Shown here piece after piece: positions 1 through 41,651 of a DNA stretch of 41,651 nucleotides. The first letter of the stretch is position 1; each line of letters opens with the position of its first letter. A program made the translations under genes and the position numbers. Where the stretch lies: the NCBI GenBank assembly GCA_036630325.1, contig CP142731.1, forward strand, positions 1,240,001 to 1,281,651, in the 5' to 3' direction. Origin of the DNA: Vairimorpha necatrix. Its lineage: Eukaryota. The notes beneath the pieces were generated by a model, which was given only the letters and a program-made list of their open reading frames with translations, did not search any database and had not been told where the DNA came from.

Positions 1-1
1 A

Positions 2-1333
2 ATGAATTCAATACTATCTCCTCATTTACATAAATTTGTACAAGTATACTTAGATGATATAATGATATATTCAAGATCGGTTAAAGAACATCTAGAACAC
101 ACGGAAGCAGTGTTTAAAATATTAGACAAATTAAAACTGAAAGTCAATCAAAAAAAATGCAAGATTGCTAAAAATTCAGTAAAATTCTTAGGTTATATGA
201 TAAACAAAGATGGAATAAGCATACCATTAGAACAACAAACCAAATGTTTACGACTTAAAGTTCCGAAAACTCTCAAAGAAACTAGGGCCTTTATCGGATT
301 TATTAATTACTTTAGGAAATTTATAAAAAACTACACAGATATAATGGCCCCGATTTATGAATGCTTGAAAAAAGGAAAATTTGAGTTTTCTGAAAGCGCT
401 AAACAAAGTGTAACCAAAATAAAAGAGATTATCACGAGCTCTCCAGTCCTTAAACTACCAGATTTTAACAGAAAGTTTATTTTATATACAGATGCATCTA
501 ATTTATACATAGGAGCAACACTAATGCAGGAATACGAGGGAATAGAAATGCCAGTATATTTTATATCAAGGAAATTAAATACGGCAGAAATCAACTATAC
601 AGTAACCGAAAAAGAGTGTCTTGCTATAATATGGAGCATAACACAATTCAGAATATATCTTACAAATACATTTATAATCCGTACAGACCACCAAGCGCTT
701 AAATGGCTACTGAGTTTTAAAGAGAGTACAGGGAGATTAATGAGATGGATTCTAACTTTAGAAAATTACTCTTACGAAATTGAGTATATTAAAGGAAAAG
801 ATAATGTAATTGCAGATGGATTAACCAGATTTGTCCATACAGTAAATAAGGACCAGGCTGATGAACTATCCGTTTCAGAAAAAAAAGAACTTATTCTAAA
901 GTGTCACGAAGAATGTGGGCATGGGAGTATATTTCCAACATACACGCTAATCCTCCAGAAAGCGCAATGGAAAGGTATTTACGCAGATATAAGAAAAGAA
1001 ATAGAAAATTGCCAAGTATGTCTGAAATTTAATCCTAAAAGAATACCCAAAGAGTATCATAGGATTCAACTGAAAGAACCATTTTCTCTAGTTGGTATCG
1101 ACATAGTAGGCCCATTGCCTAAGTCAGAAAATGGAAAGATTTATATAATTGTAGCTACCGATTACATTACTAGATGGTGTGAAGCTAAGGCCGTGAAGAA
1201 TAAAACAGCCAAAACAGTAGCCAAATTTATTTTTGAAGAGATCATATGCAGACATGGTCCACCGAACGAACTACTTTCAGATAGGGGACTCGAATTTTTG
1301 AACTCTACAGTAAAAGAATTATGTAGAATTTTT
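2..1333 (+). pseudogene. pol: Gypsy pol 5' segment (RT C-terminal part, RNase H, integrase N-terminal part and core), disrupted by Merlin insertion
   Basis: ORF 2..1378 has VYLDD, YTDAS, IRTDH, H-H-C-C and GIDIVGP. The pol sequence ends at ELCRIF (1333); the remaining codons read into the Merlin TIR. Confidence 0.93.
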
Positions 1334-2458
1334 GGATCTAGTTTGTTATACGCCCTATCCGGGCGTATAACAAACTAGGTTTTTAAAAATTTACCCTCAT
1401 GAGAACGGGTGTGTCGCAGTTTGAAAGTTACGTACAAATCCGTAGAATGCCACCTAGAGAGATGATTTCTGTTCTGCGAGAACAAAACCTTCTTTTGACC
1501 AGTATGTCCTGTTCTGAGTGTTCATCTGGCATGGTTGAGAGATCAAAGAAAGGCCCGGACCTCATATGCTGGACTTGTGATAATAAAGTGTGCAGGCTCT
1601 ACAGAAGCACAAAGAGCATTAGAACTGGATCGTTTTTTGAGGGATTTAAATTGCCATTGTCCGAGATCTACGCTATGATTATGCTTTGGAGCAAGGGAAA
1701 ACAGATTAAAGAGATCATTTCTGAGCATGGATTTAGAAGAAACAGCATCGTGGCAATTATAAACAAGTTGAGAACTATTCTTAAAGGATACTTCGAGGCT
1801 GATTCTATGAGATTGGGAGGTCCAGGTATTGTTTGCCAGATCGACGAAAGCCAGTTCGTCCACAAGATCAAACATCATCATGGCAGAGCACCATCAAGTG
1901 ATGTGTGGGTTTTTGGGATCGCAGACACCTCTTTCTCTCCTGCGAAGTGCTATATGGAGATTGTTCCCAATCGAACAGCTGCTGTTTTACTTCCGATCAT
2001 TGCTAGGATATGTAGACCTGGCACAATCATTCACTCTCATGGCTGGGGATCATATGTGAATATCGAAAGAGAGCTCGGGTTCCGTCATCTGGTTGTAAAC
2101 CACAAGACAAATTTCGTTGATCCGATAACTGGAGCCCATACCCAGAACATAGAGTCATTCTGGAATAAGATGAAGATTGTGATTAAGAAAATGTATGGTG
2201 TTCAAAAAGCACAACTTCCTGGTCTTCTAGCTGAACTGATGTTCAGAGATGAGTTTAAGCAGGCTGTGTTCATCAGAATTCTATCTTTACTAGCCATAAG
2301 CAATAAAATTAATTAATTCTAAAACAAGCCTGTTTTTTTACAATGCTGCTTTTTTATTATCATGCTAGAAAAGTTATTCTCTCTTAAAAATGTGTAATTT
2401 TTTATTCCGGGCGTATAACAAACTAGGTTTCCCTCCGGGCGCGTAGCAAACTAGATCC
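1334..2458 (+). mobile_element. Merlin (IS1016/ISXO2-like) DNA transposon, 1125 bp
   Basis: TIRs GGATCTAGTTTGTTATACGCCC (1334-1355) and GGGCGCGTAGCAAACTAGATCC (2437-2458) match at 19/22. 8-bp TSD GAATTTTT at 1326-1333 and 2459-2466. Single transposase ORF. Confidence 0.95.
1399..2316 (+). CDS. Merlin/IS1595-family DDE transposase (second catalytic Asp appears replaced by His)
   Basis: N-terminal Cys zinc ribbon (CSEC...C...C), SIRTGSFFE, LGGPGIVCQIDESQF, VNH...FVDP.TGAHTQNIESFW. CCC motif just before the ATG (TTTACCCTCATG). Confidence 0.92.
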   Translation: MRTGVSQFESYVQIRRMPPREMISVLREQNLLLTSMSCSECSSGMVERSKKGPDLICWTCDNKVCRLYRSTKSIRTGSFFEGFKLPLSEIYAMIMLWSKGKQIKEIISEHGFRRNSIVAIINKLRTILKGYFEADSMRLGGPGIVCQIDESQFVHKIKHHHGRAPSSDVWVFGIADTSFSPAKCYMEIVPNRTAAVLLPIIARICRPGTIIHSHGWGSYVNIERELGFRHLVVNHKTNFVDPITGAHTQNIESFWNKMKIVIKKMYGVQKAQLPGLLAELMFRDEFKQAVFIRILSLLAISNKIN

Positions 2459-2466
2459 GAATTTTT

Positions 2467-3114
2467 CATGTGCGAAAATCTTTTACTTCGTCTTACCATC
2501 CTCAATGTAATGGTACAGTTGAAAGAACCAATCAATCGCTGGTAGCTAAACTGGCCAAAATAACTAATGAAAGATGGAAAGAATGGGACGAATATTTAGA
2601 ACTAGCACTATATGCTTATCGTATTTCTCCAAGGAAGAAAACGGGATTTTCACCATTTGAATTATTGTATGGACGTAAGCCACAAGAATGGGATCAGACT
2701 AACCAAGAGATAGTACCCATGGAACCTAATCTATTGATATTTGAAAGATTAAACCAAACTCGAGAAATAATGCTTCAAGCAGAGAGAGAAGCACGGGAAA
2801 GAGAAATGGGAAATGTGAAAGAACAGGCTTTTAAAGTAGGGGATATAGTACTGAGGAGAAAACCTCCAATCAATATAAAAAATAAACTGGACAGTAAATT
2901 TGAAGGACTTTACACTATAACTAAGATAGGAAAAAGGGGTGCGTATGAAATAACTAGTCCAAATAATGTTGTTTTCTCGGTGAATCAGAAAGATTTAAAA
3001 AAAATGGATTTTGAAAAGGAAACTTGGGAGCCGATAAGGAAGGGGGGAGTGTCAAGGGACAGATCTCCAGTGGTCCTAAGATTGCCCTGGAGACCAGAGA
3101 ATACCATACTATAG
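2467..3114 (+). pseudogene. pol: Gypsy pol 3' segment (integrase core end and C-terminal domain)
   Basis: HVRKSFTSSYHPQCNGTVERTN, TGFSPFELLYGR and GPY/F-like FEGLYTI. Continues the 2..1333 frame exactly once Merlin and one TSD copy are removed. The stop codon lies in the 3' LTR. Confidence 0.93.
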
Positions 3115-5953: not shown

Positions 5954-5991
5954 TGTGGGATTTAAAACCCTCAATAAATAAATGGTTTACA
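5954..5991 (+). repeat. 5' LTR of element B (38 bp)
   Basis: TGTGGGATTTAAAACCCTCAATAAATAAATGGTTTACA directly followed by the PBS. Confidence 0.85.
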
Positions 5992-7151
5992 TGGCGAACA
6001 CAAGCGAAAACGGGGTAACAAGTGAGACCCGCGTTCAAGAGAACAGAAAAATTTTCAAAGAAGCTAATAGAGTAGAAGCGATTATCAGAATTTAGGAAGA
6101 AGTAAATGAAATGACACTGAAGCAGGCGATAAAACAATTAATTATTAAACTTTATGATTTTATTATTGATATAAATATAATCAGTATGACAAATTGGACG
6201 ATATTATTGAAGAAATTGGAAAATTAGTTGTTGAAGAGGAAGAGAATGAGAACAAGGAAAAGATAAGGAGGAGAGAACTAGAAGATATGGTAGAGGTCAT
6301 GAAAGAAAAATTTTGAAGAGAGATTAAAGGAGAATTGCCCAGGAAAGTAGCAGTGCATGGAAGACATTCTTATTATAAAAGATGAGAAGAAAAATATTGT
6401 TTTGTATGTGGTAAAATGGGACACATAGCTAAGAAGTTTTCATAACGTAAAGGAAATGAAAAAGATCAAGTTAATAAAGAAAATAAAAATTTGGACTTTT
6501 TGCATGCTAAAAGTGAAAATCAATGTAAAAGAAGTAAAAGTAATTTGACTATAGAAGAATTAGAAAATAGATTGTGGTGCGAGCTGCCTTCCTGGCCGCT
6601 CGGCTTGTTTAAATAATTTGCTTTTGTATAATATTTGTTAACTTTAGTTCTTTTAATCACTCGGTGAAGGGCTAGAAATTCATCCTTTTATTTTTATTTT
6701 TAATAAATGTCAAGCATATCATTAATTGGGGGGAAAGCCGGTCTCTTGTACAGCTTTCCATATTCTGGCCATATTCACTAGAATAGACATTTTCTTATTC
6801 GTCATTTGTTTGTTGACGAAGACGTATTTGTTTACGTGTATGACTCGGCCGTAATTGAGATATGACAGTCGAGGGATTCAAATATTAGAGTCTCACTGGG
6901 CCTGTAATAGGTACAGGAAGGATGTCGTGTGACATAGATATCCCGAGGTATTTAAAATAAGACCAGATGAAAAGATAAAATACTTAACAGGAGAAAATGT
7001 CTAATCTAGACAAAATTAAGGGGAGAAAATAGTGAGAAAAGGGCAAGTTGTTCCCAGAGCCTTAAATCAAAGTTTGTTATGTATTGGAAGATTTGAGAAA
7101 AAGAAGGATTATTAGGAAGTCGAAATATATGCGGCGAAACCCTATTAGGGC
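5982..7151 (+). pseudogene. Element B gag and RT N-terminus remnant (split by solo LTR 6573-6934)
   Basis: MVYMANT start, zinc knuckle remnant CFVCGKMGHIAKK near 6398, EELENR|YPEVF across the solo LTR, RRNPIRA at the element C junction. Many stops. Confidence 0.75.
6573..6934. mobile_element. Solo LTR (362 bp) inserted in element B
   Basis: TGTGG...TGACA termini with 5-bp TSD TAGAT (6568-6572 and 6935-6939). Removal restores the host frame ENRYPEVF. Confidence 0.88.
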
Positions 7152-7238
7152 TGTTGATATTTTTATATTTTTATATTTTTATTACCCCAATTTTTAAGAT
7201 GAGTAAGGAAGTGGAGGAGAAGAATCTCATAAATAAAA
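7152..7238 (+). repeat. 5' LTR of element C (87 bp, TG...AA)
   Basis: Identical to 10520-10606. Contains T-rich repeats, CCCC, the gag ATG (7199) and AATAAA. Confidence 0.92.
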
Positions 7239-10200
7239 TGGTGGAGAATATGAAAACAAAGCCAGTTGAAACTACCATCAAAAAGGAAAATTTGATGAGT
7301 GAATGTAGAAGGTTAGAAAATATGACCTTCTTCAGAGAAATGTGCGATGAGAGGAAAATCGAATATTTGATTGGAAGAGCTGACTACTTTATAGTAGATT
7401 GGCACCATGAGTTGATGGACACTAAAAGGAGGTGTTCGTTGGATTACGAAAAATGGAAAGAGTTGGCTAGAACCGAATTTGAAAAGAAAAGGCTTACTAT
7501 AGGGGAGTTATATCGCATGGTACAACAAGATGAAGAAACTATACCAACGTTTATAGAAAGAGTTAGAGATTCAGCCAGAGAGTACAAACTTGCAAAAAAG
7601 GAAATCATTGATATAATTACAGCTGGACTTAAAACAGGAATGGGCGATGTAAAAAGATTTTTATTGGCAAATAGTGATATTACAGATGAAAATCTAGAGA
7701 CAATCAAGAAATTGGAAAGTGAGTGTACAGCTGAATTACACCGAATTAATGATTTAAAATTGATGATTGAAAAAATTGATACTCTTAAATTTCAGGGGAA
7801 GAAAACAGTTAAATGTTACAACTGTAATAGCTTAGGCCATTATGCTAGAGATTGTCGAAAGCCAAAGAGAAGTGAAAATCTTAGGAGAAACATTAATGAA
7901 ATTACTGAAGAACTTAGAGATTTATTAAATAAAGAAAATTCAGTTTACATTTGTGGAGAGAAGGTTCCAGTATTGTTTGATACAGGTGCAAATTATAATT
8001 TTATAAGTAGTGCTAGTGTAGCAAGATTCAACCTTTTAACACATAATAACACAAGGAAATTAAGATTTTGGACATGTTTGGAAGAATCATTTGTGATAAA
8101 AAGACATGTTATATTAAATTATACATATAAAGGACATTTATATAGATCAAAGTTTTATATATTGCCAAAAGTACGAACTGAAAAAATCCTATTTGGTAGA
8201 GAAACATTAATTAGACTTAATAATATTGAGAAACTGAGTTATACATGTGAAATCAAAACACCTGAAGGCTCAAAAGTGATCGAAAAGATATATAATTTAC
8301 CAAAGAAATTGGAAGCAGAAATTGAAATTGCTATTAATAAATTATTAGAAAAGGGATATATACAAAACTCAAAATCAACGTGGGTTAGTAATTTGAGACC
8401 CGTGATAAAGCCAGATGGCACTGTAAGGGTTACAACCAATTTAATAGCACTTAATAGGTTGGTAGAACAGGATAATTATTCTTTACCAAGAATAGATGAA
8501 ATCCTTTGTAATTTAAGAGACATGACAGTATTTTCTAAATTGGATTTGAAGGATGGATTTTTTCAAATTCCTTTGGCACCGAAAGATAGATATAAAACGG
8601 CATTCAGATATAAACATAAATTATATGAGTGGAAAGTAATGCCACAGGGGTTTAAGAATGCTCCAGCAATATTTCAACGAAAAATGGATAAAGTTTTGAG
8701 AGATGAAATTGGTAAAAGTTGTTTCTGCTACGTAGATGATATTCTAATATTTGGAAAAACTGCAAAAGAGCACGACGAATCATATAATAGAATTCGAAAA
8801 CTTTTACTAGAAAATAATCTCAAAATCAATGAGGAAAAGTGTGTATTTAGACAATCCGAAGTTCTATTCCTGGGATACAAAATTAAACACAACATCATTA
8901 TTCCGCTCATAGATAAGATGCAAGCTATTGAGGATTTAAAACCACCTAAGGACAAAAAACAGATTCAAGAATTTTTAGGTGCCATAAACTATTATAGAAA
9001 ATTCATTAAAAACTGTTCAATTGTATGTGGTCCTTTGTATGAATTATTGAAAAATAAGAAAGAATTCAAATGGACGAATATAGAAGAGAACGCTTTTAAA
9101 GAAGTTAAAAGAATTTTTATTAATACGGTAGGACTATTTCAGCCAGATTGGTCAAAAGAATTTAAACTAGAGACCGACGCTTCAAATGAAGGTATAGCTG
9201 CAATACTCTCGCAAAATTTTGATGGAGATGAAAAACCAATTGCATTTGCATCGAGAAGGTTATTAGAACATGAGATTAAATATAGTATCAGCGAAAAGGA
9301 ATGTCTGGCCATGTTATGGGCAATGGAACACTTTCGATATTTTTTATACGGTACACATTTTGAAATTATCACAGATCATAAAGCGTTAGAAGCATTAAAT
9401 AAGGGTCAAATTAAGTCTCTGAGAATACAAAGATGGCTAGATAGAATGTCATTGTTTAATTTTAGAATTAGATATAGACGAGGTAAAGAAATTCCTCACG
9501 TGGATTGCCTAAGTCGAAATTCTGGATTGGCAACAAACGACAAGAGATTAAATTTACACGAAGGATCGATAAATCAATGTGAAGAAATGGACGAAAAGAA
9601 AATGCTTCAGATGATTCGCGAAATTCATAATGAGTTACTTCACCGTGGGATACAATCAGTAAAATATGAGATGTATAAAAGAGGTATTAATATAAAAAAT
9701 TCACAAAAATTGATTAGAAAAATTATAGATTCGTGTGAAACATGCAACGAGTACAATTCTAAAAAATCTAAACAATACATATTTGTTACCTCGTATGCAA
9801 AGGGAGAAAAAATTGCTATAGATATAATAGGTCCAATAAACACACAATACATTATAACTGGGATTGATTATTTTACGAGAAAAGGATTTGCTAAAGTGAT
9901 AAATAAGAGAAAAGATGAAAATGTAGTTAACTTTCTAAAAGAAATAAGTTCATCTATGTCTTTGAAGACATTGATCCTGGATCAATCGAAAGAAAATCTC
10001 AGTAGTAAGGTAAAAATGTTTTGCCAAGCAAATAAAATAGAATTACATTATACCACACCTTTCCATCACCAGTCAAATGGGCGTGTAGAAAGGTTTAATC
10101 GTACTTTACAAGATTTAATTTATAAAAATAAAAAGGAAAAATTACTTACTGAAAAGGTTAACAGAGGAATAGAGATATACAATAATAGCTATCATTCGGC

Positions 10201-10510
10201 TACGAGGATGACGCCAAATGAAGCTTTCTCGTTAGAAAATACGGATGAATTAAAAAATGCACAAATTAAGAATATTGTTGCATATAATACAGCCCAAATG
10301 AGGAAACCAAAAGAAATTAAATTAAATATGGGCGATATAGTAATTATCAAAGAAGAAGGAATAATAAAGAAGGGACAACCTAGATTTAAATTAAGGGGTA
10401 AAATTCATAAATGTTTAGAGGGTAATACGTACATGATAGACACCGGTAAAAGAATGTTTAAAAGGCATATATCTCAACTCAAACTTGTCATTGATGACCC
10501 CATCCTTTAA
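7199..10510 (+). CDS. Gag-Pol polyprotein (Gag with CCHC knuckle, aspartic protease, RT, RNase H, integrase), 1103 aa from the first ATG
   Basis: CYNCNSLGHYARDC, LFDTGA, YVDD, ETDAS...ITDH, H-H-C-C, AIDIIG/ILDQS/VERFN. The frame is uninterrupted; first ATG at 7199 follows a CCCC motif. Confidence 0.95.
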   Translation: MSKEVEEKNLINKMVENMKTKPVETTIKKENLMSECRRLENMTFFREMCDERKIEYLIGRADYFIVDWHHELMDTKRRCSLDYEKWKELARTEFEKKRLTIGELYRMVQQDEETIPTFIERVRDSAREYKLAKKEIIDIITAGLKTGMGDVKRFLLANSDITDENLETIKKLESECTAELHRINDLKLMIEKIDTLKFQGKKTVKCYNCNSLGHYARDCRKPKRSENLRRNINEITEELRDLLNKENSVYICGEKVPVLFDTGANYNFISSASVARFNLLTHNNTRKLRFWTCLEESFVIKRHVILNYTYKGHLYRSKFYILPKVRTEKILFGRETLIRLNNIEKLSYTCEIKTPEGSKVIEKIYNLPKKLEAEIEIAINKLLEKGYIQNSKSTWVSNLRPVIKPDGTVRVTTNLIALNRLVEQDNYSLPRIDEILCNLRDMTVFSKLDLKDGFFQIPLAPKDRYKTAFRYKHKLYEWKVMPQGFKNAPAIFQRKMDKVLRDEIGKSCFCYVDDILIFGKTAKEHDESYNRIRKLLLENNLKINEEKCVFRQSEVLFLGYKIKHNIIIPLIDKMQAIEDLKPPKDKKQIQEFLGAINYYRKFIKNCSIVCGPLYELLKNKKEFKWTNIEENAFKEVKRIFINTVGLFQPDWSKEFKLETDASNEGIAAILSQNFDGDEKPIAFASRRLLEHEIKYSISEKECLAMLWAMEHFRYFLYGTHFEIITDHKALEALNKGQIKSLRIQRWLDRMSLFNFRIRYRRGKEIPHVDCLSRNSGLATNDKRLNLHEGSINQCEEMDEKKMLQMIREIHNELLHRGIQSVKYEMYKRGINIKNSQKLIRKIIDSCETCNEYNSKKSKQYIFVTSYAKGEKIAIDIIGPINTQYIITGIDYFTRKGFAKVINKRKDENVVNFLKEISSSMSLKTLILDQSKENLSSKVKMFCQANKIELHYTTPFHHQSNGRVERFNRTLQDLIYKNKKEKLLTEKVNRGIEIYNNSYHSATRMTPNEAFSLENTDELKNAQIKNIVAYNTAQMRKPKEIKLNMGDIVIIKEEGIIKKGQPRFKLRGKIHKCLEGNTYMIDTGKRMFKRHISQLKLVIDDPIL

Positions 10511-10519
10511 GCGGAGGGA

Positions 10520-10606
10520 TGTTGATATTTTTATATTTTTATATTTTTATTACCCCAATTTTTAAGATGAGTAAGGAAGTGGAGGAGAAGAATCTCATAA
10601 ATAAAA
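10520..10606 (+). repeat. 3' LTR of element C (87 bp)
   Basis: Follows the PPT, is identical to the 5' LTR and is followed by TSD AGGGC. Confidence 0.92.
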
Positions 10607-10611
10607 AGGGC

Positions 10612-13156
10612 TATTAAAAAACCTAATGGAGCTGTTTGAATTGTCAGTAATTTTAAAGGATTGAATGATTTGGTCGAAAGAACCCATATGAGTTGCCAAG
10701 AATCAGAGATATTATAATTGCGAAACGGGCTCTAGAGTTTTTACAGTGCTTGATATTAAAGAAGCATTTTATCATATTGAAATTGAAGAAGCGCAAAGAT
10801 TTAAAATTACGTTTGAATTTGAAGGAAATGTATATGAGTGGAATAGCATGGTCATGGGATATAAAAATGCACCTCGGATTATGCAGAGGACAATGAATAA
10901 CATTTTAAACAACTTGAGAAGAAAAGGAGTAGAAGTTTATATGGATGACATTGTTGTTTATTCGAAGACGTATAAAAAACATGATGAGATATTAAATGAA
11001 GTGTTGCGGAAATTATAACATCATGGCCGAAAAGTAAATGTAAGTAAGGTACGTGTGATGTACATGACTACATCACATGGACAGCTGTCAAACCCATCAG
11101 CTGTCAAACATCTTAAACGGCATGTCATGGCGAGTCACACAAACAAATAAACAAACGAAAGTTGGATGGTCGTTACTACATTCGTAAGTACGCCAATGTT
11201 TGTGTTTAGTGTTGACAACAATTAACAAATTAAAAATAAACTATACAAGAAAGTCTGTCGGTGAAGGGTATGGAATATCAGAGGAATAGAAACACCATCA
11301 ATAAAGTTATTAATATTAACAATATTTTAGAAAGCTATATAAATATAGCAAAGTCCCGTCTATACAGGACAGTACGATATAGGCTGGATAAAGTTAAATT
11401 ATTAGGAGTTGGTGTGAATGGTGATTGTAGAAAACCATCTGAAATTAAGCGCAATGAAGCATTAAAATTTAAAAGTTCGACGAATGTTAGTGAGTTTCGT
11501 AGAATTTTTAATATTGACAGGATGGTTCAGAAAATTTATAGGGAATTATGCTATTATGACAATAGCACTTGCAGACGCGTTAAAGAAAGATAAGGAATGG
11601 GATTGGATCGATGAAATGGAATGTGAATTTAACGCATTGAAAGATGAATTGAGGAATACAATTGAGTTAAAAATTCCAGTTTATACAAAATTATTTTTTT
11701 TAAAAAATGATGCTTCAGACACGGAATTGAGAATATTGTTACAAACAAATAAGGAAGGTAAGTGTGGTTCTATTCAGTAGGCTTCTAAAAAGCTGAAACC
11801 AGCAGAAAGAAAATATGGTATTTCAGAAAAAGAAATGTTAGCAGTGTTTTGGGGTATAAAAAAGTATGAATATGATTTAAGAGGTAAAAAATTTTAATTA
11901 CAGACAGACCTTAAAGCTTTAGAGGCAATGAGATCTAAAGAATGCTATTATAATAATAGAATAAATCGGTGGATCGAGAAAATTTTTAGTGTTCGACTTT
12001 ACAGTTAAATATAATAGAGGTGAAACAATGACAGATGTAGATGCTTTAAGCAGACCTTTCAGGATGACGCAAATAAAGAAAAGAAAACAGAGATTATAAA
12101 AAACAAATTTTAAGAAAAGAAGTGAAACATGTTTAAGAAGTAAATGGAGAAAAGATATGGAAGTAAAATCAGGATAAACAGCGATAGTTCCAGATACGGA
12201 AATTAGAGATAAGTTTATTAAGGAAAAACATTTGGAGCTTAATCACAGAGGAATAAAAGGTACTTATTATGAGTTGAAAAAGAAATGGTATTGGTTAGGT
12301 ATGATGAAAACATAAGTAACATATTGAGAGAATGCTAAACGTGCAGAAGTATTAACAGAAAGAACAGAGAGGGTGGATTTATTGCCCCCATGAAAACAGG
12401 AGAGAAGTTAGGTCTTGATATCATGAAAATAGGAAATCCAAAATGCAATGTTCTGCAGGAATTGACTTTATCCGAGATATGCGTATAGTGCAGTATTGGA
12501 TAGAAGAACTAGTAGTAATGTTATAAAGACAATGGAAAACTGGTTTAAAGAAGAGTGTGTACCAGAAGAGATAATTAGTGACAATGCAAAAGAGTTTGTT
12601 GGCGAAGAATTTTGACGATGGTGTTGTGATAATGAGATATTACATCATAAGGTAAGTGTTGAAAGTTATGGTAGTAGTGAAAGGATATTAAGATTAATAA
12701 GAACTTTATGAGAAGCTGTACTTAATCAAAGTGGAGGCAATTTAAAAGAAAAAGTGAAGAACGCAATCGATGTATATAACAGAAGGTATTACAGTTGAAT
12801 AAAATGTAGCCCAATCGAAGCAAAAGGTGAAATGTCTAGTTGCGGAAAGTTAAGAACGCTAAATGAGAAAGATGGTGAGTATTCAAAGAAGTGTGAGAAG
12901 AGATGAAGAGAACAATTTAAACTGGGAGATAAGGTTTTTTTAGCTAAGAGAGAAATTTTAGCAAGTCGAATGAAAGATGATAAAGGAAGATACGTAAATG
13001 AGTAGTAATAATCGAAATTGTAGAATGATTCGTACTTAATAAAATACAATGATGGTATGATAAGAAAGCAGAGACATTTTGATTTCAAAGTCTGTGCTAA
13101 GGTGAAAAAGGTTCGTTAGGTTGATGTTAATGAGACAAATCGTCTTGAGAAGGGAA
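10612..13156 (+). pseudogene. pol: Element B pol remnant (RT, RNase H, integrase) with stops and frameshifts, split by solo LTR 11054-11371
   Basis: Fragments LDIKEAFYHIEI, VYMDD, GWFRKFI, NDASD, HRGIKGTYY...WYW and ISDNAKEF are colinear with the element D protein. Confidence 0.88.
11054..11371. mobile_element. Solo LTR (318 bp) inserted in element B RT
   Basis: TGTGA...GGACA termini with TSD GTACG (11049-11053 and 11372-11376). Removal restores KVRYRLDKVKLLGV. Confidence 0.88.
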
Positions 13157-13195
13157 TGTGGGATTTTTAACCCCCTAATAAATAAATGGTATACA
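13157..13195 (+). repeat. 3' LTR of element B (39 bp)
   Basis: TGTGGGATTTTTAACCCCCTAATAAATAAATGGTATACA after a purine tract; a diverged copy of 5954-5991. Confidence 0.85.
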
Positions 13196-17932: not shown

Positions 17933-18483
17933 ACTAACATAACTAATATTGTTTTAAAATATTCAAAGACAATTAAAAAATTAAAAATATATATCTGATA
18001 AATTTTGATTTAAGGTTTTGAATCAGATACACGTGTTTTGATTTTTACAAAATTTTTTTTTAATCTGAAATCTCCTTAAAAACATGAAAAGTAGTTAGAT
18101 TTAAATTTTACAAATTCTTATAAAACAATTTATGGGTTATCAGCATTCTCAATGTCCATATTTTTTTATCTATAGAATTGTAAACAACAGTATTGGGGTT
18201 TCTAGTATATTATGCATACTTGAACCTTCTGTTTACCTTATCGTATGACCTAAATTGTCTTTTAAGCGTTTGTTCTATTTAAAGTTATGGTCATTAATCA
18301 TAACGCCATATATATACTCGATATTGATTAATCCCTGCAATCTGCGAAGACTAAATATGTAACTTCCTAACATTATATTTTTGCCTGATAAAGTTATCGC
18401 CAATATAATATCGTGATTTTTATACTATTCATAATCATATATATCTGTTTTTTATATTAGGGTTATCAATATTTTTTATTAAA

Positions 18484-18521
18484 TGTAGGGTTTAGAACCC
18501 TTAATAAATAAATGGTTAACA
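18484..18521 (+). repeat. 5' LTR of element D (38 bp)
   Basis: TGTAGGGTTTAGAACCCTTAATAAATAAATGGTTAACA. Confidence 0.93.
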
Positions 18522-21500
18522 TGGCGAACACAAGAATGAACAGGGAAACAAGAGAGTCCCGTAGTCAAGAGGCTAGAACATTAGAGAAAGAGGCAATTAG
18601 GATAGATAAGAGACTAAAGTTAATATTGAAAGTTGAGTGGAAAGATGTTATGGATTTGGCATCTGCGAACTTGCAGGATTATATTTTTGAAAATTTTTGT
18701 GACGGAAGGAGCAGTTGGGAGGAAATTTATAAAGGCTTACAAAAAGGAGCAGAATTTGAGAGAGAGTCAGAAGAAAGACAAGAAATGATTAAAGAGATTA
18801 TGGATAAAGTGTTGAAAGAGTTTAGGGAAGAAAGAAAAGAAAATCTTAGGATGTATAGGAAAAGAAGAGAAATCAGAGAAACTACAAAATGTTTTATATG
18901 TAAGAAAGAAGGGCATTACGCTAGAGAATGTCATGAAAGTGTAGCTGGTAGAGAAAAATATAAAATTAAAAAGGAACAAGTTTTACAGAAAGAACCAATT
19001 ATCAACAATGAAGGGAAAAGATGTAAAACAGTAAATAAGTTAGAAAATTTAATTGAAAAGTATCCGGAAGTTTTTAAAGAATCAGAAGAAAAGATAAAAT
19101 ATCTCACAGGAGAGAAGTGTCCAATAAATACTAAGCAAGGTGAAAAGGTTGTGAAAAGAGGGCAGAATGTGCCATACTACCTTAGGGTGAAATTTGAGGA
19201 GTACTTGAATAAGTTGGAAAATAGAGGGGTTATAAGACGTTCCAAAAGTGAGTGGAGGAGTCCAATAAGAGCACTTGAAAAACCAAATGGGGACGTAAGA
19301 TTGGTAAGCAATTTGATGGCGTTAAACGATTTGGTTGACAAGGACCCGTACTCACTACCGTTAATTAAGGATATTATGAGAGCCACACAGGGGTCAAAAG
19401 TATTTACGGTTATCGACTTAAAAGAAGGGTTTTATCATATTGAGATTGAGGAGCACCATAAGCACAAAACAGCATTTGAAGTGAATGGTCGAGTATACGA
19501 ATGGAATAGTATGGTTATGGGGTTTAAGAATTCGCCTCATATAATGCAGAGAGTAATGAACAGAGTTTTAGATGAATTCAGAGGTAAAGGCGTGGAAGTA
19601 TATATGGATGATATAGTTATTCATGGTAAAGACGTAAGAGTGCATGACGAGTTACTAGAGAGGGTAATTAAAAAGTTTAAAGAGTGTGGGTTGAGAATAA
19701 ACCAAACAAAGATACAATACAAAAAAGATGAGGTGATGTTGCTGGGAGTAACAATTAATGGGGAGGTCATGGGACCGAATGAGATTAAAAAGCAGGAGAC
19801 ATTGGAATATAGAAAACCTGAGAATGTTAGAGAGTTAAGAAGATTAATAGGACTAACTGGTTGGTTTAGAGACTTTATTCCCAACTATGCGTATAGAACA
19901 GTAAGGCTTACTGAGGCTTTAAAGAAAGATGTTAAGTGGAATTGGACGGAGGATATGGAAAGAGCTTTTGAGGATATGAAGCAAGGCTTGAGAGATATGA
20001 AAAAGTTGAAGATTCCGGACGGAAAAAAGCTATTTAGAGTAAGAACCGATGCGTGTGATACGGGGATCGGAGCAATTCTATTACAAGAAAATAAAGAGGG
20101 TGAGTGGATTCCGATACAATGGGCATCGAAAATGTTGACTCCTACCGAGCGAAGATATACGATAAGTGAGAAGGAGATGTTGGCGGTGTTTTTTGGAATA
20201 AAGAAGTTTGAAAGTGATTTGAGAGGAAGGAAATTTCATTTGATGACGGATCATAAAGCATTAGCAGAGATCAGAAATAAGCCATACTTCAATAATAACA
20301 GAATAAACAGATGGGTAGAACAGATACAAGAGTTTGACTTTACAATAGAGTATGTGAAAGGGGAGTTGATGACAGATGCAGATGAGTTAAGTAGGCAGTA
20401 TGATCAGGTAGAAGTTTCGGATGAACAAAAAGAAAAGGACAACAAGAGAAAAGAAGTGATCGAAAAACAAATTTTGGGGAAAAAGCAGAAACATATTAAA
20501 GAAAAGGACGGTAAACAGTATTGGGAATTTTCCACAGGTGAGGTGAAAGAGATATTGAGCCTAGATAGTAGAGAACATGAAATAACAAGAGTACATGAGG
20601 AGTTAAACCATAGAGGTGTCAAAGGCACTTATTATAACATTAAACAAAGATGGTATTGGCCTGGTATGAAAGATCATATTAATAAGGTAATTAAGAATTG
20701 TGAAATATGTGGGATTAACAATAGGAAAAACACAGGAGGATGTGATTTCGTAGTAACTAGAAAGAAATTGGAGAAAGTGGCGTTGGATTTAATGGACATA
20801 GGTGGAGAGAATAGGTATGTGTTACTGGGTATTGATTACTTTACTAGAAGGTTGTGGGGTTCGAATTTGAGATGTAAAGAGAGTAGTGAAGTTTTAGAGG
20901 TATTACAAAAGTGGATAAGGGAAGATGGATTTCCAGAGGAATATGTGACAGACAACGGAAAAGAGTTTGTAAGTAATAGATTTAAAGAATGGTGTAGTAT
21001 TAATGATATTAAACATAGGAAAGTGGGCTTAGAAGCTCATAGGAGTAATGGTAGAATCGAGAGATGCATCAGAACTATAAGAGAGACATTGATAAAGCAA
21101 AATGATGGGAATATTTCTGAAAAGATAGAAAGAGCAATCGAAGGATATAATAATACACTACATACAGCAATAAAATGTACGCCGATGGAAGCGTGGAGAG
21201 ATCAAACTGCTGAAGTTATAATTGAAAATGATGAAAATGGAAAATATGCTGGTCGGTTCAAGAGAAGACACAGAGAGACATTTACAGTAGGCCAAGAGGT
21301 AAGAATCGCTAGGAGAGAAAATTTAGGTACACGTGCGAAAACAGACAAGGGAAGATTCACGGGTCGCGGAAGGATCGTAGCTATAAGTGAAAATGATTCA
21401 TATATTGTGAGACTACTGGATGGTAAAATTGTTAAAAAGAGGCATTATGATTTGAAAGAGATAAGGAAGAGTTGTTTAGAAGATGGAGAGACTACCCGTC

Positions 21501-21523
21501 TGGAGGGGGGATGTAGGGTTTAG
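18512..21523 (+). CDS. Compact Gag-Pol polyprotein (short Gag with CCHC knuckle, RT, RNase H, integrase; no recognisable protease), 1003 aa
   Basis: CFICKKEGHYAREC, VYMDD, RTDAC...MTDH, H-H-C-C, ALDLMD/VTDNG/IERC. No D[TS]G motif between the knuckle and RT. Confidence 0.93.
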   Translation: MVNMANTRMNRETRESRSQEARTLEKEAIRIDKRLKLILKVEWKDVMDLASANLQDYIFENFCDGRSSWEEIYKGLQKGAEFERESEERQEMIKEIMDKVLKEFREERKENLRMYRKRREIRETTKCFICKKEGHYARECHESVAGREKYKIKKEQVLQKEPIINNEGKRCKTVNKLENLIEKYPEVFKESEEKIKYLTGEKCPINTKQGEKVVKRGQNVPYYLRVKFEEYLNKLENRGVIRRSKSEWRSPIRALEKPNGDVRLVSNLMALNDLVDKDPYSLPLIKDIMRATQGSKVFTVIDLKEGFYHIEIEEHHKHKTAFEVNGRVYEWNSMVMGFKNSPHIMQRVMNRVLDEFRGKGVEVYMDDIVIHGKDVRVHDELLERVIKKFKECGLRINQTKIQYKKDEVMLLGVTINGEVMGPNEIKKQETLEYRKPENVRELRRLIGLTGWFRDFIPNYAYRTVRLTEALKKDVKWNWTEDMERAFEDMKQGLRDMKKLKIPDGKKLFRVRTDACDTGIGAILLQENKEGEWIPIQWASKMLTPTERRYTISEKEMLAVFFGIKKFESDLRGRKFHLMTDHKALAEIRNKPYFNNNRINRWVEQIQEFDFTIEYVKGELMTDADELSRQYDQVEVSDEQKEKDNKRKEVIEKQILGKKQKHIKEKDGKQYWEFSTGEVKEILSLDSREHEITRVHEELNHRGVKGTYYNIKQRWYWPGMKDHINKVIKNCEICGINNRKNTGGCDFVVTRKKLEKVALDLMDIGGENRYVLLGIDYFTRRLWGSNLRCKESSEVLEVLQKWIREDGFPEEYVTDNGKEFVSNRFKEWCSINDIKHRKVGLEAHRSNGRIERCIRTIRETLIKQNDGNISEKIERAIEGYNNTLHTAIKCTPMEAWRDQTAEVIIENDENGKYAGRFKRRHRETFTVGQEVRIARRENLGTRAKTDKGRFTGRGRIVAISENDSYIVRLLDGKIVKKRHYDLKEIRKSCLEDGETTRLEGGCRV

Positions 21524-21549
21524 AACCCTTAATAAATAAATGGTTAACA
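21512..21549 (+). repeat. 3' LTR of element D (38 bp)
   Basis: Identical to 18484-18521, directly after the PPT; contains the ORF stop codon. Confidence 0.93.
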
Positions 21550-21842
21550 TATAATAAAGGATATATACTCGTTTTTGCCGTGTAAAATGTATATTATTTT
21601 TTAGTATAACATGTATATATATTAGATTTGTATATTCGGATCAAAGAAAATCTTATATAATTTTATTTTATATAAGAAAGCATAAAACTAATATTGTAAA
21701 TTATTCTATTATTTAGTTAAATCGCTTAATAATTTTCAATCTGACTAATTTGAAATTTTTCTTTATGTTTAGAAAGAAAACAAAAATAAAAGAAAGTTAA
21801 ACTATAATTGGTTTTCTTAAAGGTTAACAAATGTTTAAATAA

Positions 21843-36241: not shown

Positions 36242-39200
36242 TGTTAAAGTTGAACCTCTTGATAAATAAATGTATAACATGGCGAACACAAAAGACGCTA
36301 TGCTAACAGGTGAGACCTGTGTTTTAGAGAACAGAAAATTACTAAAAGAAGATAAGCAAGTGAGACAATCATCATAATGCAGAAAGATGTGGAAGCTATG
36401 ACAACGAAAAGGCGAAACAAGTAAGTACTGAACTTCAAAATTTTATTGTTGATAAAAATTTAATCAGTATAATAAATTGGAATGATATTATTAATGAAAT
36501 TGATAAATTAATGTTGAAGAGAAAGAGAATAAGAACAAGAAAAAAATAAGGAGCAGAGGACTAGAAGGTATGGTAGAGGGTATGAAATAAAATTAAGAGA
36601 GAGATTAAAGGAGATCTGACTTGACTATAGCAGTGCCAGCAAGACACTTTCAATATAAAAGACGAGAAACCAAAAAACAAGTTTTATATGTAAGAGCGTT
36701 GGACATATAGTTAGAAGTTGTATAGAGCGTAAAGGAAGAAAGGAAGAGAATAACGAAAATAAAAAAGTTTAATATTTTAGTATTCGTGATAATAGTAAAA
36801 TGAAAATATTTAAAGGAAATGATTTTAAAATAAGACTACCAGTGGAGGGCGAAAAGAGAACTCTAGATACAGTTTTTATGTAGAAAATACAACCAAAGAT
36901 AAAAGGGGAAAAAATATTAATAAATTACAAGAATTGAGAGGAAAATTTCTAGAAGTATTAGGAAATGACGAAGAGTAAATAAAATACTTAACAAGAGAAA
37001 AATGTTCTATTAAAACAAAACAAGGAGTGAAAGTAGTTTAAAAAAGACTAAATATTTTTTATAATCTCGAGAAAAGTTGAAAAAGCATATTAATTGATTA
37101 GAAAGTAGAGGTTTTTTTAGAAGGACAAAGAGCGAATGGAGAAGCCCAATAAAGCCCATAGAAAAACTAAATGGTGAAGTACAATTGAGAAGCAATTTGA
37201 TGGATTTAAACGAACTGGTTTAAAAAGATCCGTATGAATTGCCATTGATTAGAGACATTATTAGGGCAACGGAGGTTCTAAAGTATTTATGGTTTTAGAC
37301 CTAAAGTTAGGATTCTATCATATAAAATTGAGAAAGCTCAAAAACATAAGACAGCTTTTGAGATAATTGTTCGAGTTTACACATGGAATAGCATTGTATT
37401 GGGATTTAAAAATGCATCCCATATTATGAAAAGAGTGATGAACGGAGTTTTAGATAAGTTTAGAGGTAAGAGCGTTGAGGTGTACATGGATGATATTATT
37501 ATTCATGCAAGAGATAGTAATATACACGAAATTTTTTTAAAACAAAAAATTCGAAAACTTAACGAATGTGGATTAAAAGAAACTTAAAAAAAATACAATA
37601 TAAAGGAGAAATAAAACTACTTGGAATATCAATTAACGGAGAAGACATTACACCTAACAAAATTAAAAAGCAAGAGACATTAGAATACAGAAGGCCTAAC
37701 AATATATAAGATCTTAGAAGATTTGAGGGACGTGCAGGCTGGTTAAGAGATTTTATTCCCCATTATGCTTATCGGTCAGCGCTTCTTACGGAAGCACTAA
37801 AAAAAGATGTTAAATGGTGATGGTCCGAAGATATGGAAAGAGCTCTTATGGATATCAAAGAGGGTTTAAAGGATGTGAAAAAATTAAAAATGGTAGATAG
37901 TAAAAAAATGTGTAGAGTAAGAACAGATGCATACGATACGGGAACTTGAGCCATACTATTGCAAGAAGACAAAGAAGGAAAGTGGAATCAGATACAATGG
38001 GCATCAAAAATGTTAACAGCAACAGAAAAAAGGTATATGATTAATGAAAAAGTGATGTTGGCAGTGTTATTTGGAATAAAGAAATTCGAATCCGATTTGA
38101 GGGAAGCAAATTTCATTAAATGAAAAATCATAAAGGACTGGCCGAGATTAGAAACAAACCGTTTCGCAAAAATAACAAAAATAATAGATGGATAAAAAAC
38201 ATACAAGAGTTCGATTTAACTATTGAATATGTAAAAGGAGAATGGATGACGGATGTAGATGCTCTTAGTAGACAATTTAAAAATAACAAAGTGAAAGAAA
38301 GCAGCGAAAGATAGAAACGGACTTAAAAACAGATGAAAGGGAAAGCAAAAAAGCGCATGGTTAAAAGAGAAGGTAAAAACTATTGGAAGTTTTCAACAGG
38401 AGAAATTAATAAATACAACTCAAAGAAATAAGTGAGAACGGAAATTCGTAGAGTTCATGAGGAATTAAATCATCGAGGAGTTAAGGGAACACATTATAAG
38501 ATTATACAAAGATGGTACTGGCCAGGTATGAAGGACCAGATAACCACATCGCTAAAAAATTGTTAAGTATGTAGCATTAATAACAGAAAAAAGATCGGGG
38601 GTGGCAATTTTTTTTGGCATTTAAGAAATTAGAAAAAGTAGCTTTAGACGTAATGGATATTGAGGAAAAAGAAAAATACGTGCTATTAGGGACTGACTCC
38701 TTTACGAGAAGAGTATGGGGCGCAAAGATGGAAAATAAGGGAAATGATGTTATTACGAAAATTTTAGGATAATGGATAAATGAAGATGGATGCCTAGATG
38801 AATATTTCGGATAACGGTAAGGAATTTGTCAGTCAGAAGTTTGTAACTTGGTGTAAAGAAAATGGAATAATGCAATGGAAAGTATATTTAGAAGCTCATA
38901 GGGTTAATTGGAGAATAGAACGATGTATTTGAACAATAAGGGAACCGATGATCAAAAAAAAAGAAGGAAACCCAGAGGAAAAACTAGAACAAGCTGCAAG
39001 AACCTATAATAACACTCTACACACAGCGATTAAATGTACACCAATGGAAGCATGGAAAGAACAAGGAAAAGAAGTCTTAATTGAAAACAATAAAAAGAAT
39101 GTGTATGCAAGTAAGTTTAAACAAAAGCATAGAGAAAAATTTGAAGTAGATCAGGCTGTGAGAATCGCAAGATAAAAAACTTGGGTAAATAGATGAAAAG

Positions 39201-39409
39201 TACAAAAGGAAGATTTACAAGTGTCGGTAAAATATTCGGAAAGTATAGAATGATTCTTATTTTGTAAGGACTGATAGCGGAAGATACATTAAGAAAGACA
39301 TTATGACCTAGAATTTTTAAAAATGATAAATTAGAAGCTTGTAACCTGAGACTACCCGTTTGAAGGAGAAATGTTAGGGTTGAACTTTCCTATAAAAAAA
39401 TGTATAACA
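36242..39409 (+). mobile_element. Degenerate miniature-LTR Ty3/Gypsy element 'E' (3168 bp)
   Basis: 38-bp LTRs 36242-36279 and 39372-39409 (30/38 identical) with TSD TATAA (36237-36241 and 39410-39414). PBS TGGCGAACAC at 36280; PPT GAAGGAGAAA. Confidence 0.92.
36270..39371 (+). pseudogene. Element E gag-pol remnant with many stops and frameshifts
   Basis: MYNMANT start; fragments MGFKNASHIM...VYMDD, IQEFDLTIEYVKGE and YNNTLHTAIKCTPMEAW closely match the element D protein. Confidence 0.9.
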
Positions 39410-39572: not shown

Positions 39573-41651
39573 TTAGTTAGGTTAGGTAGGTAGGTAGGTA
39601 GGTTAGGTAGGTAGGTAGGTAGGTTAGGTAGGTTAGGTTAGGTAGGTTAGGTAGGTAGGTTAGGTTAGGTAGGTAGGTTAGTAGGTTAGGTAGGTTAGGT
39701 AGGTAGGTAGGTAGGTAGGTTAGGTTAGGTAGGTAGGTTAGGTAGGTTAGGTAGGTAGGTTAGGTTAGGTAGGTTAGGTAGGTAGGTAGGTAGGTGTAGG
39801 TAGTAGGTTAGGTAGGTAGGTTAGGTAGGTAGGTAGGTAGGTAGGTTAGGTAGGTTAGGTAGGTAGGTAGGTTAGGTAGGTTAGGTTAGGTTAGGTAGGT
39901 AGGTTAGGTTAGGTAGGTAGGTAGGTTAGGTTAGGTAGGTAGGTAGGTAGGTAGGTTAGGTAGGTTAGGTAGGGTAGGTTAGGTAGGTAGGTTAGGTAGG
40001 TTAGGTAGGGTGGTAGGTTAGGTAGGTAGGTAGGTTAGGTAGGTTAGGTAGGTAGGTGGTTAGGGTAGGGTAGGTAGGTTAGGTAGGTTAGGTTAGGTAG
40101 GTAGGTAGGTTAGGTTAGGTAGGTTAGGTAGGGTAGGTTAGGGTAGGTTAGGTAGGTAGGTAGGGTAGGTTAGGTAGGTTAGGTTAGGTAGGTAGGTAGG
40201 GTAGGTTAGGTAGGTAGTAGGTAGGTAGGTTAGGTAGGTTAGGTAGGTAGGTTAGGTAGGTAGGTAGGTAGGTAGGTTAGGTAGGTAGGTTAGGTAGGTT
40301 AGGTAGGTAGGTAGGTTAGGTAGGTAGGTTAGGTAGGTTAGGTAGGTAGGTAGGTAGGTTAGGTAGGTGGTTAGGTAGGTTAGGTAGGTAGGTTAGGTAG
40401 GTTAGGTAGGTAGGTAGGTTAGGTAGGTAGGTAGGTAGGTAGGTTAGGTAGGTAGGTAGGTTAGGTAGGTAGGTAGGTTAGGTAGTAGGTTAGGTTAGGT
40501 AGGTTAGGTAGGTTAGGTAGGTTAGGTAGGTAGGTTAGGTAGGTTAGGTTAGGTAGGTTAGGTAGGTAGGTAGGTTAGGTAGGTTAGGTAGGTAGGTTAG
40601 GTAGGTAGGTAGGTAGGTAGGTTAGGTAGGTTAGGTAGGTAGGTTAGGTAGGTAGGTAGGTTAGGTAGGTAGGTAGGTAGGTAGGTTAGGTAGGTAGGTA
40701 GGTTAGTAGGTTAGGTAGGTTAGGTAGGTTAGGTAGGTTAGGTAGGTTAGGTAGGTTAGGTAGGTAGGTAGGTTAGGTAGGTAGGTAGGTAGGTTAGGTA
40801 GGTAGGTTAGGTAGGTTAGGTAGGTAGGTAGGTAGGTTAGGTTAGGTAGGTAGGTTAGGTAGGTAGGTTAGGTAGGTTAGGTAGGTTAGGTAGGTTAGGT
40901 AGGTTAGGTTAGGTAGGTTAGGTAGGTAGGTTAGGTTAGGTTAGGTAGGTTAGGTAGGTTAGGTAGGTTAGGTAGGTAGGTAGGTTAGGTTAGGTTAGGT
41001 AGGTAGGTAGGTAGGTTAGGTTAGGTTAGGTAGGTTAGGTAGGTTAGGTAGGTTAGGTTAGGTTAGGTAGGTTAGGTAGGTTAGGTAGGTAGGTAGGTTA
41101 GGTTAGGTAGGTTAGGTAGGTTAGGTAGGTTAGGTAGGTAGGTTAGGTAGGTTAGGTTAGGTTAGGTTAGGTAGGTAGGTTAGGTAGGTTAGGTAGGTTA
41201 GGTAGGTTAGGTAGGTTAGGTAGGTTAGGTAGGTTAGGTTAGGTAGGTAGGTTAGGTAGGTTAGGTAGGTTAGGTAGGTAGGTAGGTTAGGTAGGTAGGT
41301 TAGGTTAGGTAGGTAGGTAGGTAGGTAGGTTAGGTAGGTTAGGTAGGTTAGGTAGGTTAGGTTAGGTAGGTTAGGTTAGGTAGGTTAGGTAGGTTAGGTA
41401 GGTAGGTTAGGTAGGTAGGTTAGGTAGGTTAGGTAGGTTAGGTAGGTAGGTAGGTTAGGTAGGTAGGTAGGTAGGTAGGTAGGTAGGTTAGGTAGGTAGG
41501 TAGGTAGGTAGGTAGGTTAGGTAGGTTAGGTTAGGTAGGTAGGTAGGTAGGTAGGTAGGTTAGGTAGGTAGGTAGGTAGGTAGGTAGGTTAGGTAGGTTA
41601 GGTAGGTAGGTAGGTAGGTAGGTTAGGTAGGTTAGGTAGGTTAGGTTAGGT
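39573..41651 (+). repeat. Telomeric array of irregularly mixed TAGG and TTAGG units
   Basis: About 2.08 kb running to the end of the window, G-rich strand 5'->3' toward the end. Occasional TAG, TGG and TAGGG variants. Confidence 0.96.

Follow-up and report, generated by a model that had tools for sequence, protein, structure and literature searches.

The window studied here, a 41,651-nucleotide (nt) stretch of Vairimorpha necatrix contig CP142731.1, contains an intact long terminal repeat (LTR) retrotransposon, element D, whose single polyprotein carries a reverse transcriptase (RT), an RNase H, and an integrase (IN), and in which no protease was found. Element D is a complete and probably recently mobile member of a microsporidian clade of Ty3/gypsy type. 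Comparison with its relatives makes it very probable that the clade of elements closest to D lost the aspartic protease once, at its base, and that Gag was cut to a helical domain of about 125 amino acids (aa) followed by one CCHC zinc knuckle. Taken as a whole, a reading in which element D is a complete member of this clade, the protease was lost a single time, and the polyprotein works uncleaved as a tethered fusion has, in our judgment, a slightly better than even chance of being right. The element and the parts of its polyprotein are arranged as follows:

18484-21549, plus strand: element D, complete Ty3/gypsy-type LTR retrotransposon, 3,066 bp
18512-21523, plus strand: single, intact polyprotein open reading frame (ORF), 1,003 aa, with its ATG in the 5′ LTR and its TAG in the 3′ LTR
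18521-18883, plus strand: N-terminal helical domain, residues 4-124, a reduced Gag-like part (AlphaFold2)
18890-18931, plus strand: single CCHC zinc knuckle CFICKKEGHYAREC, residues 127-140 (zf-CCHC, E 3.8e-4, 20.9 bits against a cut-off of 20.8)
18932-19057, plus strand: linker of 42 aa, residues 141-182, in place of the protease of relatives (AlphaFold2 and alignment)
19058-19075, plus strand: KYPEVF, residues 183-188, start of the conserved RT N-terminal region (family consensus YPxVF)
19277-19756, plus strand: RT core RVT_1, residues 256-415, with YMDD at 364-367 (Pfam E 4e-31)
19943-20335, plus strand: RNase H, residues 478-608 (RT_RNaseH E 2.9e-30, RT_RNaseH_2 E 1e-27)
20570-21019, plus strand: integrase, with the H2C2 zinc domain at residues 687-738 and the rve core at 763-836 (Pfam E 2.7e-14 and 3.8e-10)

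The reading frame occupies 3,012 of the 3,066 nt of element D (98%), and an ORF scan found no other plus-strand ORF of at least 80 aa within it. The order of the Pol domains, RT, RNase H, and then DDE integrase, is the Ty3/gypsy order in Pfam, and the RT/IN sequence is nested among protease-bearing relatives annotated Ty3-gypsy, Tf2, or 17.6. A preliminary description of this DNA had listed the RT, RNase H, and integrase motifs as intact, and the Pfam domains, together with the YMDD, HHCC, and rve motifs, bear this out.

The same description had proposed that the family has no protease domain. Pfam, profile search, profile-profile alignment, six-frame translation, and structure prediction were all negative for a retropepsin in element D, and the tests that included element C, a protease-bearing element of the same window used as the positive control, were positive on it. 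In particular, with Pfam at E ≤ 10, residues 1-256 of element D gave only zinc-knuckle families and chance matches, with no protease among them, and the whole protein gave no protease family even at E ≤ 1; residues 1-468 of element C gave RVP_2 (E 3.4e-5, over the cut-off), gag-asp_proteas, Asp_protease_2, and Peptidase_A2B, along with a weak Retrotrans_gag match. For 42 family N-terminal fragments, 31 of which match zf-CCHC, no protease or capsid family stands among the matches listed (25 of 65 families). An iterated jackhmmer protease profile seeded with element C residues 270-385 was negative on all 41 family proteins (D and P0001-P0040; best family domain E 1.9 with filters off) and positive on 44 of 60 distant relatives (P0041-P0100), many of them without a precomputed Pfam protease, with matches in relatives spanning 90-116 positions. 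When compared by hhalign with the protease profile, the family N-terminus scored a probability of 0.1%, and the control, element C residues 1-440 against a profile built without C, scored 97.7% (E 1.7e-12) over residues 280-379. A protease hidden Markov model (HMM) run over six frames of the whole window at E ≤ 10 with filters off had one match (E 3.7e-23), which lies in element C and contains the LFDTGA motif that the preliminary description had assigned to that element:

7943-8212, plus strand: retropepsin of element C, the only protease found in the window, with LFDTGA at 7973-7990 (residues 293-298 of the stop-to-stop frame)

The AlphaFold2 model of element D residues 1-256, built from a 42-row alignment and having a mean predicted local distance difference test score (pLDDT) of 80, consists of helix and coil with no beta domain. 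Foldseek returned 0 matches for this model at E ≤ 0.001 in PDB and BFVD; the rows below that threshold are local matches to the knuckle or to RT fragments. The element D protein likewise contains no 2A-like NPGP skip motif.

The spacing of the motifs leads to the same result. Only 42 aa separate the knuckle from KYPEVF, where about 40 had been proposed, and a retropepsin monomer takes about 90-100 aa, so that there is no room for a protease in this interval. It contains no D[TS]G motif, as had been stated from the letters; the sole D[TS]G of the protein is a DTG at residues 516-518, within the RNase H motif. Between the knuckle and a conserved RT anchor there are 105 aa in element D and, for 21 of 24 family proteins, 99-148 aa; about 55 aa of this span is RT N-terminus, and the three longer intervals are charged low-complexity expansions. 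Because the short, gappy interval recurs in all 24 knuckle-bearing family proteins measured, down to 42-45% identity, it is not a chance pattern. Two isolated motifs elsewhere in the family were considered as proteases and rejected: the DTG of P0010 (VVDTGNG, 20 aa before YPNVL) and the DSG of P0009 each occur in a lone protein, in a low-complexity insert, and too near RT.

The part of the polyprotein that precedes the knuckle is 126 aa long in element D, compared with about 205 aa from the first Met in element C, in keeping with the very small Gag of about 125 aa noted at the outset. AlphaFold2 places helices at residues 4-36, 43-49, 52-63, and 69-124, with block pLDDT values of 93-98 over residues 21-140. 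Since positions conserved across the family (S..L..F, W) are found together with a high-confidence predicted fold, the N-terminus is a real domain, apparently a long hairpin of helices that carries a small insert. A two-lobed capsid is not recognisable in it: element D matches no Pfam capsid family, and the model has no PDB or BFVD fold match at the threshold given above. When the family N-terminus was aligned by hhalign with the Gag of C and its relative P0060, only 31 columns at the knuckle aligned. Language-model look-alikes of the N-terminus in ESM-Atlas are Gag-type clusters scoring 0.88-0.89, which is below the 0.9 reliability line and makes them a lead only.

The knuckle itself is strictly conserved, with C127, C130, G134, H135, and C140 invariant in 25 of 25 aligned family proteins. 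The linker that follows is modelled as one helix (141-158) and then a low-confidence coil (159-176), and its columns are gappy and unconserved across the family; relative to L002, a family member from another data set, it has 33% identity and a proportion of nonsynonymous differences (pN) of 0.42. A tether therefore fits this disordered, length-variable, unconserved segment better than a conserved cleavage site does. The two deepest members of the clade, P0035 and P0036 (39% identity), have about 310 aa before RT, without a CCHC knuckle or a recognisable capsid or protease family. Judging from such sequences, the protease-less clade seems to have exchanged its N-terminal module on more than one occasion.

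The proteins nearest to that of element D are about 1,000 aa long and lie on contigs of about 3.0-3.3 kb; those with organism names come from Nosema granulosis and Vairimorpha necatrix, and their source names are "Pol polyprotein" or "reverse transcriptase". To place the protease loss, as the preliminary description had suggested, a FastTree phylogeny was computed from 738 RT-RNase H-IN columns and 70 rows, aligned by hmmalign to a family-built HMM and rooted at the midpoint, after removal of 17 proteins shorter than 850 aa and of 15 rows in which gaps exceeded 40%. All 30 long family rows form one clade with a Shimodaira-Hasegawa-like (SH-like) support of 99. The sister of this clade is the protease-bearing pair of element C and P0060, with a support of 99 for the joint clade. 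The tree is unchanged on adding four loci from metagenome bins G001 and G002, one of which, L007 (protease E 1.3e-15), falls beside C. A single loss before the clade diversified to 39-72% identity appears to be the simplest reading.

The enzymatic domains have remained under constraint. The catalytic residues of RT and RNase H and those of the HHCC and DDE regions are invariant in 25 of 25 aligned proteins. Between element D and L002, pN is 0.13-0.22 and the corresponding proportion of synonymous differences (pS) is 0.75-0.82 in RT, RNase H, and IN, these being the quantities given since dS is saturated for this pair. The selection check proposed in the preliminary description thus found pN far below pS, a pattern indicating that purifying selection on the three enzymes continued after the protease was lost.

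Contigs about 99.7% identical to element D are present in two public runs, X1 and X2. In X1, word depth is 60-65 inside element D and 2.6 in its 5′ flank, although contig word depth is not a copy number. On the left, contigs of the public runs join other flanks at 18475-18483. The 3′ edge is marked in X1 and X2, where a contig segment agrees with the downstream flank from position 21549 onward and has different sequence ahead of it. Compared with the window copy, the common copies in X1, X2, and X4 are longer by an in-frame insert of 9 nt after 18627, within the N-terminal helical domain. Depth and flanks in the public runs suggest that element D is multicopy and young. A scan of metagenome contigs yielded a single locus, L001, which at only 27% identity was not used.

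The terminal repeats and adjoining signals of element D, and the two degraded members of its family in the window with which they were compared, are as follows:

18484-18521, plus strand: 5′ mini-LTR of element D, 38 nt, TG...CA (direct repeat, read with flanks)
21512-21549, plus strand: 3′ mini-LTR of element D, 38 nt, identical to the 5′ copy (direct repeat, read with flanks)
18522-18533, plus strand: primer-binding-site (PBS)-like sequence TGGCGAACACAA, adjoining the 5′ LTR and overlapping the codons M-A-N-T (same 12-mer in B, D, and E)
21488-21511, plus strand: conserved block GAGACTACCCGTCTGG and polypurine tract (PPT) GGAGGGGGGA (21502-21511), adjoining the 3′ LTR
5954-13195, plus strand: element B, degraded family member with stops and frameshifts, LTRs 5954-5991 and 13157-13195
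36242-39409, plus strand: element E, degraded, frameshifted family member with stops, LTRs 36242-36279 and 39372-39409

LTRs usually have a length of a hundred nt or more, and 38 nt is far below this. Both LTRs of element D are enclosed in a perfect direct repeat of 40 nt (18483-18522 and 21511-21550). The LTR-PBS...PPT-LTR layout, with a candidate PBS, is complete at both ends, so that nothing is missing off the ends of the element. The 5′ LTR carries GGG, CCC, AATAAATAAA, and the first ATG of the ORF, with the CCC motif 12-14 nt before the ATG; the 3′ LTR contains the final three codons of the ORF and its TAG. Across D, B, and E, the LTR consensus (38-39 nt) is TGT.GGGTT..A.AACCC.TAATAAATAAATGGTT.ACA, and each family LTR in the window combines a CCC motif, an AATAAA signal, and a start codon, to which the 3′ copy adds a stop codon. 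According to PMC2803860, microsporidian genes have AAUAAA signals, 5′ untranslated regions of less than 7 nt, and, shortly before the start codon, a CCC-like motif. The CCC and AATAAATAAA of the 38-nt LTR fit these reported promoter and poly(A) signals, and with the signals so placed within the LTR, the R region would be confined to roughly 10-16 nt. An R of that length poses the question of how strand transfer works.

The 12-mer TGGCGAACACAA adjoins the 5′ LTRs of B (5992), D (18522), and E (36280), and its position makes it the candidate PBS; a tRNA scan found no tRNA genes within the window. At the other end, the block GAGACTACCCGTCTGG also precedes the 3′ LTR of element E (39348) and that of L002, and the 3′ end of L002, which is 67% identical to D, has the same PPT block and a 38-nt TGT.GGGTT...TAACA repeat. 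A block upstream of the PPT, GAGACTACCCGT(C/T)T(G)G, is near-identical as DNA in D (21488-21503), E (39348-39363), and L002 (2700-2716), and is mirrored in the conserved C-terminal "ETTRLE" of many family proteins. This GAGACTACCCGT block resembles a cis-acting signal and is perhaps a second primer or tRNA contact, for which Ty3 offers a precedent. The 5-nt flanks are TATAA on both sides of E, TTAAA and TATAA for D, and TTATA and TAAAA for B, with three of five positions matching in each of the latter two; in AT-rich flanks such matches carry little weight.

How might such an element replicate? We propose that the polyprotein would be cut by no element-encoded enzyme and would act as a tethered fusion of helical domain, knuckle, 42-aa flexible linker, RT, RNase H, and integrase. 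In this model, the element's own RNA, probably the molecule from which the protein was translated (in cis), would be held by the helical domain together with the knuckle. Reverse transcription by the attached RT/RNase H would begin at the PBS, the attached integrase would insert the resulting cDNA, and no closed, matured capsid would form. On its own, this uncleaved, tethered-fusion mechanism stands at or a little short of even chances. More tentatively, and with our doubts outweighing our confidence, members of the clade could be the smallest self-sufficient LTR retrotransposons known (about 3.07 kb), having neither protease nor capsid shell and using an uncleaved, cis-acting, LINE-like protein.

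Several points weigh against this account. Protease-defective mutants of the LTR retrotransposons and retroviruses that have been studied do not transpose. In the window and in bin G001, the two places examined, the family is found together with protease-bearing C-type elements. A clear target-site duplication was not found for D or B, and only E has TATAA on both sides. The tree is a FastTree tree only, from an alignment to a family-built HMM with a midpoint root, and the saturation of dS and the nature of contig word depth, given above, limit the evidence on selection and on copies.

Protease-bearing elements of the sister lineage that reside alongside the family, such as C, might instead supply a retropepsin that cuts the polyprotein of element D in trans, which would make the family conditionally non-autonomous; we regard this as unlikely. 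A donor is present, in that element C is intact, has a 1,137-codon frame, LTRs that are 98% identical, and a DTG motif, and is nested in family member B. The C lineage is also the nearest protease-bearing relative of the family, and bin G001 holds both a D-like contig and C-like protease elements (L007, E 1.3e-15). A precedent for such partial dependence exists in plants, where BARE2 depends on the Gag of BARE1. However, retropepsins normally act within an assembling particle, and co-assembly of D and C is unlikely with N-terminal domains that share only the 31 columns at the knuckle. The LTRs of C (about 95 nt) and D (38 nt) are unrelated, with no shared cis sequences detected, and the region where Gag and RT would be cut varies in length and sequence. 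Moreover, the family has 30 long, open members at 39-72% identity, for which long dependence on a diverging helper would be fragile, and the co-occurrence of C and D was seen in only two places, both rich in transposable elements. Among the three mechanisms named in the preliminary description (an uncleaved polyprotein, a protease borrowed from C-type elements, or one from the host), the evidence does no more than tilt toward independence from the C-type protease, since the N-terminal domains share only the knuckle.

Somewhat less likely again is that proteases of the host cell, or housekeeping proteases of the parasite, cut the disordered linkers and free RT/RNase H, integrase, and a small protein that binds nucleic acid. 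Two linkers, at residues 141-182 and about 613-685, combine charge and low conservation with predicted flexibility, and an element that encodes no protease of its own fits processing by such enzymes, but no conserved motif marks a cut site for a host protease. Host cleavage is, in addition, hard to tell from the uncleaved model unless processing is shown to be required.

A hidden protease, either a very divergent retropepsin or a non-homologous enzyme in the N-terminal 255 residues or elsewhere, is very improbable: precomputed Pfam lists did miss real proteases in distant relatives (e.g., P0041, P0042, P0046) that the profile later found, and P0010 has its stray VVDTGNG, but the 42-aa gap is too small for a retropepsin monomer, the predicted model has no beta domain, the profile, hhalign, and six-frame tests are negative on D and positive on C, and the P0010 DTG and P0009 DSG are isolated in low-complexity inserts. 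It is scarcely credible that the copies are defunct products of deletion from a normal element and that their short N-terminus is meaningless. The degradation of B and E in the window speaks for such a reading, but D has an uninterrupted frame and identical LTRs, all 24 knuckle-bearing relatives share its architecture, down to 42-45% identity, pN falls far short of pS, and several public runs contain near-identical copies set in other flanks.

With the uncleaved tethered fusion as the reading that we prefer, element D can be compared with known systems. It shares with the single-ORF Ty3/gypsy elements of microsporidia (Nosema bombycis Nbr; the microsporidia-specific groups of Parisot et al. 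2014) the RT-RNase H-integrase order, the LTR-PBS...PPT-LTR layout (with a candidate PBS in D), and the single polyprotein in place of separate gag and pol. It differs from them in having no protease, a Gag of about 125 aa with one knuckle, and LTRs of 38 nt. PMC4202319 and PMC13174016 describe a single-polyprotein layout of microsporidian elements, and PMC2474625 credits "nearly all" elements of N. bombycis with Gag, protease, RT, RNase H, and integrase; the word protease has 0 occurrences in the text of PMC4202319. The wording "nearly all" in PMC2474625 leaves room for an earlier, unremarked sighting of a protease-less element. No description of a protease-less LTR element with a DDE integrase, or of LTRs of about 40 nt, was found in the accessible literature, a body that includes portions of PMC4202319, PMC2474625, PMC2387174, PMC10133504, PMC13174016, and PMC11592040 and that leaves subscription journals and supplements mostly outside.

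The lineage of element C (C, L007, and P0060) resembles D in its single ORF, short LTRs, ORF start within the LTR, and one CCHC knuckle. Unlike D, element C has a retropepsin (residues 280-379), about 205 aa before the knuckle, and the weak Retrotrans_gag match. Ty3/gypsy elements of the Tf1/sushi type have, like D, one uninterrupted ORF, but Tf1 requires its own protease to mature the polyprotein, and the family of D is without one. DIRS1/Ngaro elements and long interspersed nuclear elements (LINEs) replicate without an element-encoded protease, LINEs doing so as ribonucleoproteins with cis preference, and would be the closest functional analogy to the mechanism proposed here. DIRS/Ngaro elements rely on a tyrosine recombinase, and LINEs combine an endonuclease with target-primed reverse transcription. 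Element D differs from both in its DDE integrase (Integrase_H2C2 and rve), LTRs, PBS-like site, and PPT. Classification of D as a DIRS/Ngaro-type element is ruled out by the presence of Integrase_H2C2 and rve in place of a tyrosine recombinase. Partly non-autonomous LTR elements, such as BARE2, large retrotransposon derivatives (LARD), terminal-repeat retrotransposons in miniature (TRIM), and TR-GAG, lack one or more proteins and borrow them from a partner, and D is in part comparable with them. In contrast to these elements, D shows no detected likeness to C in LTR or Gag beyond the knuckle, and keeps RT, RNase H, and IN under selection. Non-autonomous LTR elements usually share LTR and packaging sequences with their partner.

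The textbook view is that every autonomous LTR retrotransposon or retrovirus needs Gag, protease, RT/RNase H, and integrase, and that maturation in the particle is obligatory. A diversified clade under selection that has neither a protease nor most of Gag is a natural experiment on which of these parts are required, and element D offers a minimal 3.07-kb LTR element for dissection at the bench. If replication is indeed uncleaved and shell-less, proteolytic maturation and encapsidation would be dispensable for LTR retrotransposition, and the clade would blur the functional border between LTR and non-LTR retroelements. The compaction of microsporidian genomes reaches here into their own parasites, with an LTR that doubles as promoter, start codon, stop codon, and poly(A) signal. 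Such elements will be missed or mislabelled by domain classifiers that expect a protease and by LTR finders with a 100-nt minimum, which is their default.

The window is AT-rich (GC content 0.18-0.46 in 1-kb steps) and holds further elements besides D. Element C (LTRs 7147-7241 and 10515-10609) is nested in element B and splits it just after the RT N-terminal region of B. Between its knuckle and RT, the linker of element B also harbours an unrelated stretch of about 364 nt (6572-6935). The preliminary description had given this interval as about 130 bp in B and about 230 bp in E. For E the value holds, with 221 nt from the end of the knuckle at 36721 to KFLEVL at 36943. For B it holds for the 132 nt from the end of the knuckle at 6439 to the end of EELENR at 6571, but does not extend to the RT motif, since RYPEVF is reached only at 6936, after the insert. 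A further gypsy-type element at 1-3114 is cut by the start of the window, and its integrase is interrupted by an ORF at 1387-2313 with an ISXO2-like DDE_Tnp_IS1595 transposase domain (E 3.5e-15).

Outside the window, metagenome bins G001 and G002, which bear Clostridium sp. and Turicibacter sp. labels, hold many open LTR-retrotransposon polyproteins of eukaryotic type (L002-L016), and G001 has 21 RVT_1 matches and 12 gag-asp_proteas matches. These polyproteins are most likely microsporidian or fungal contamination of bacterial bins.

The end of the window, 39575-41651, consists of about 2.07 kb of irregular TAGG/TTAGG units on the plus strand with a GC skew of 1.0. A composite TAGG/TTAGG telomere is reported for one Nosema species (PMC11592040). 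The tract looks like a chromosome end, in which case the retrotransposon cluster would be subtelomeric.

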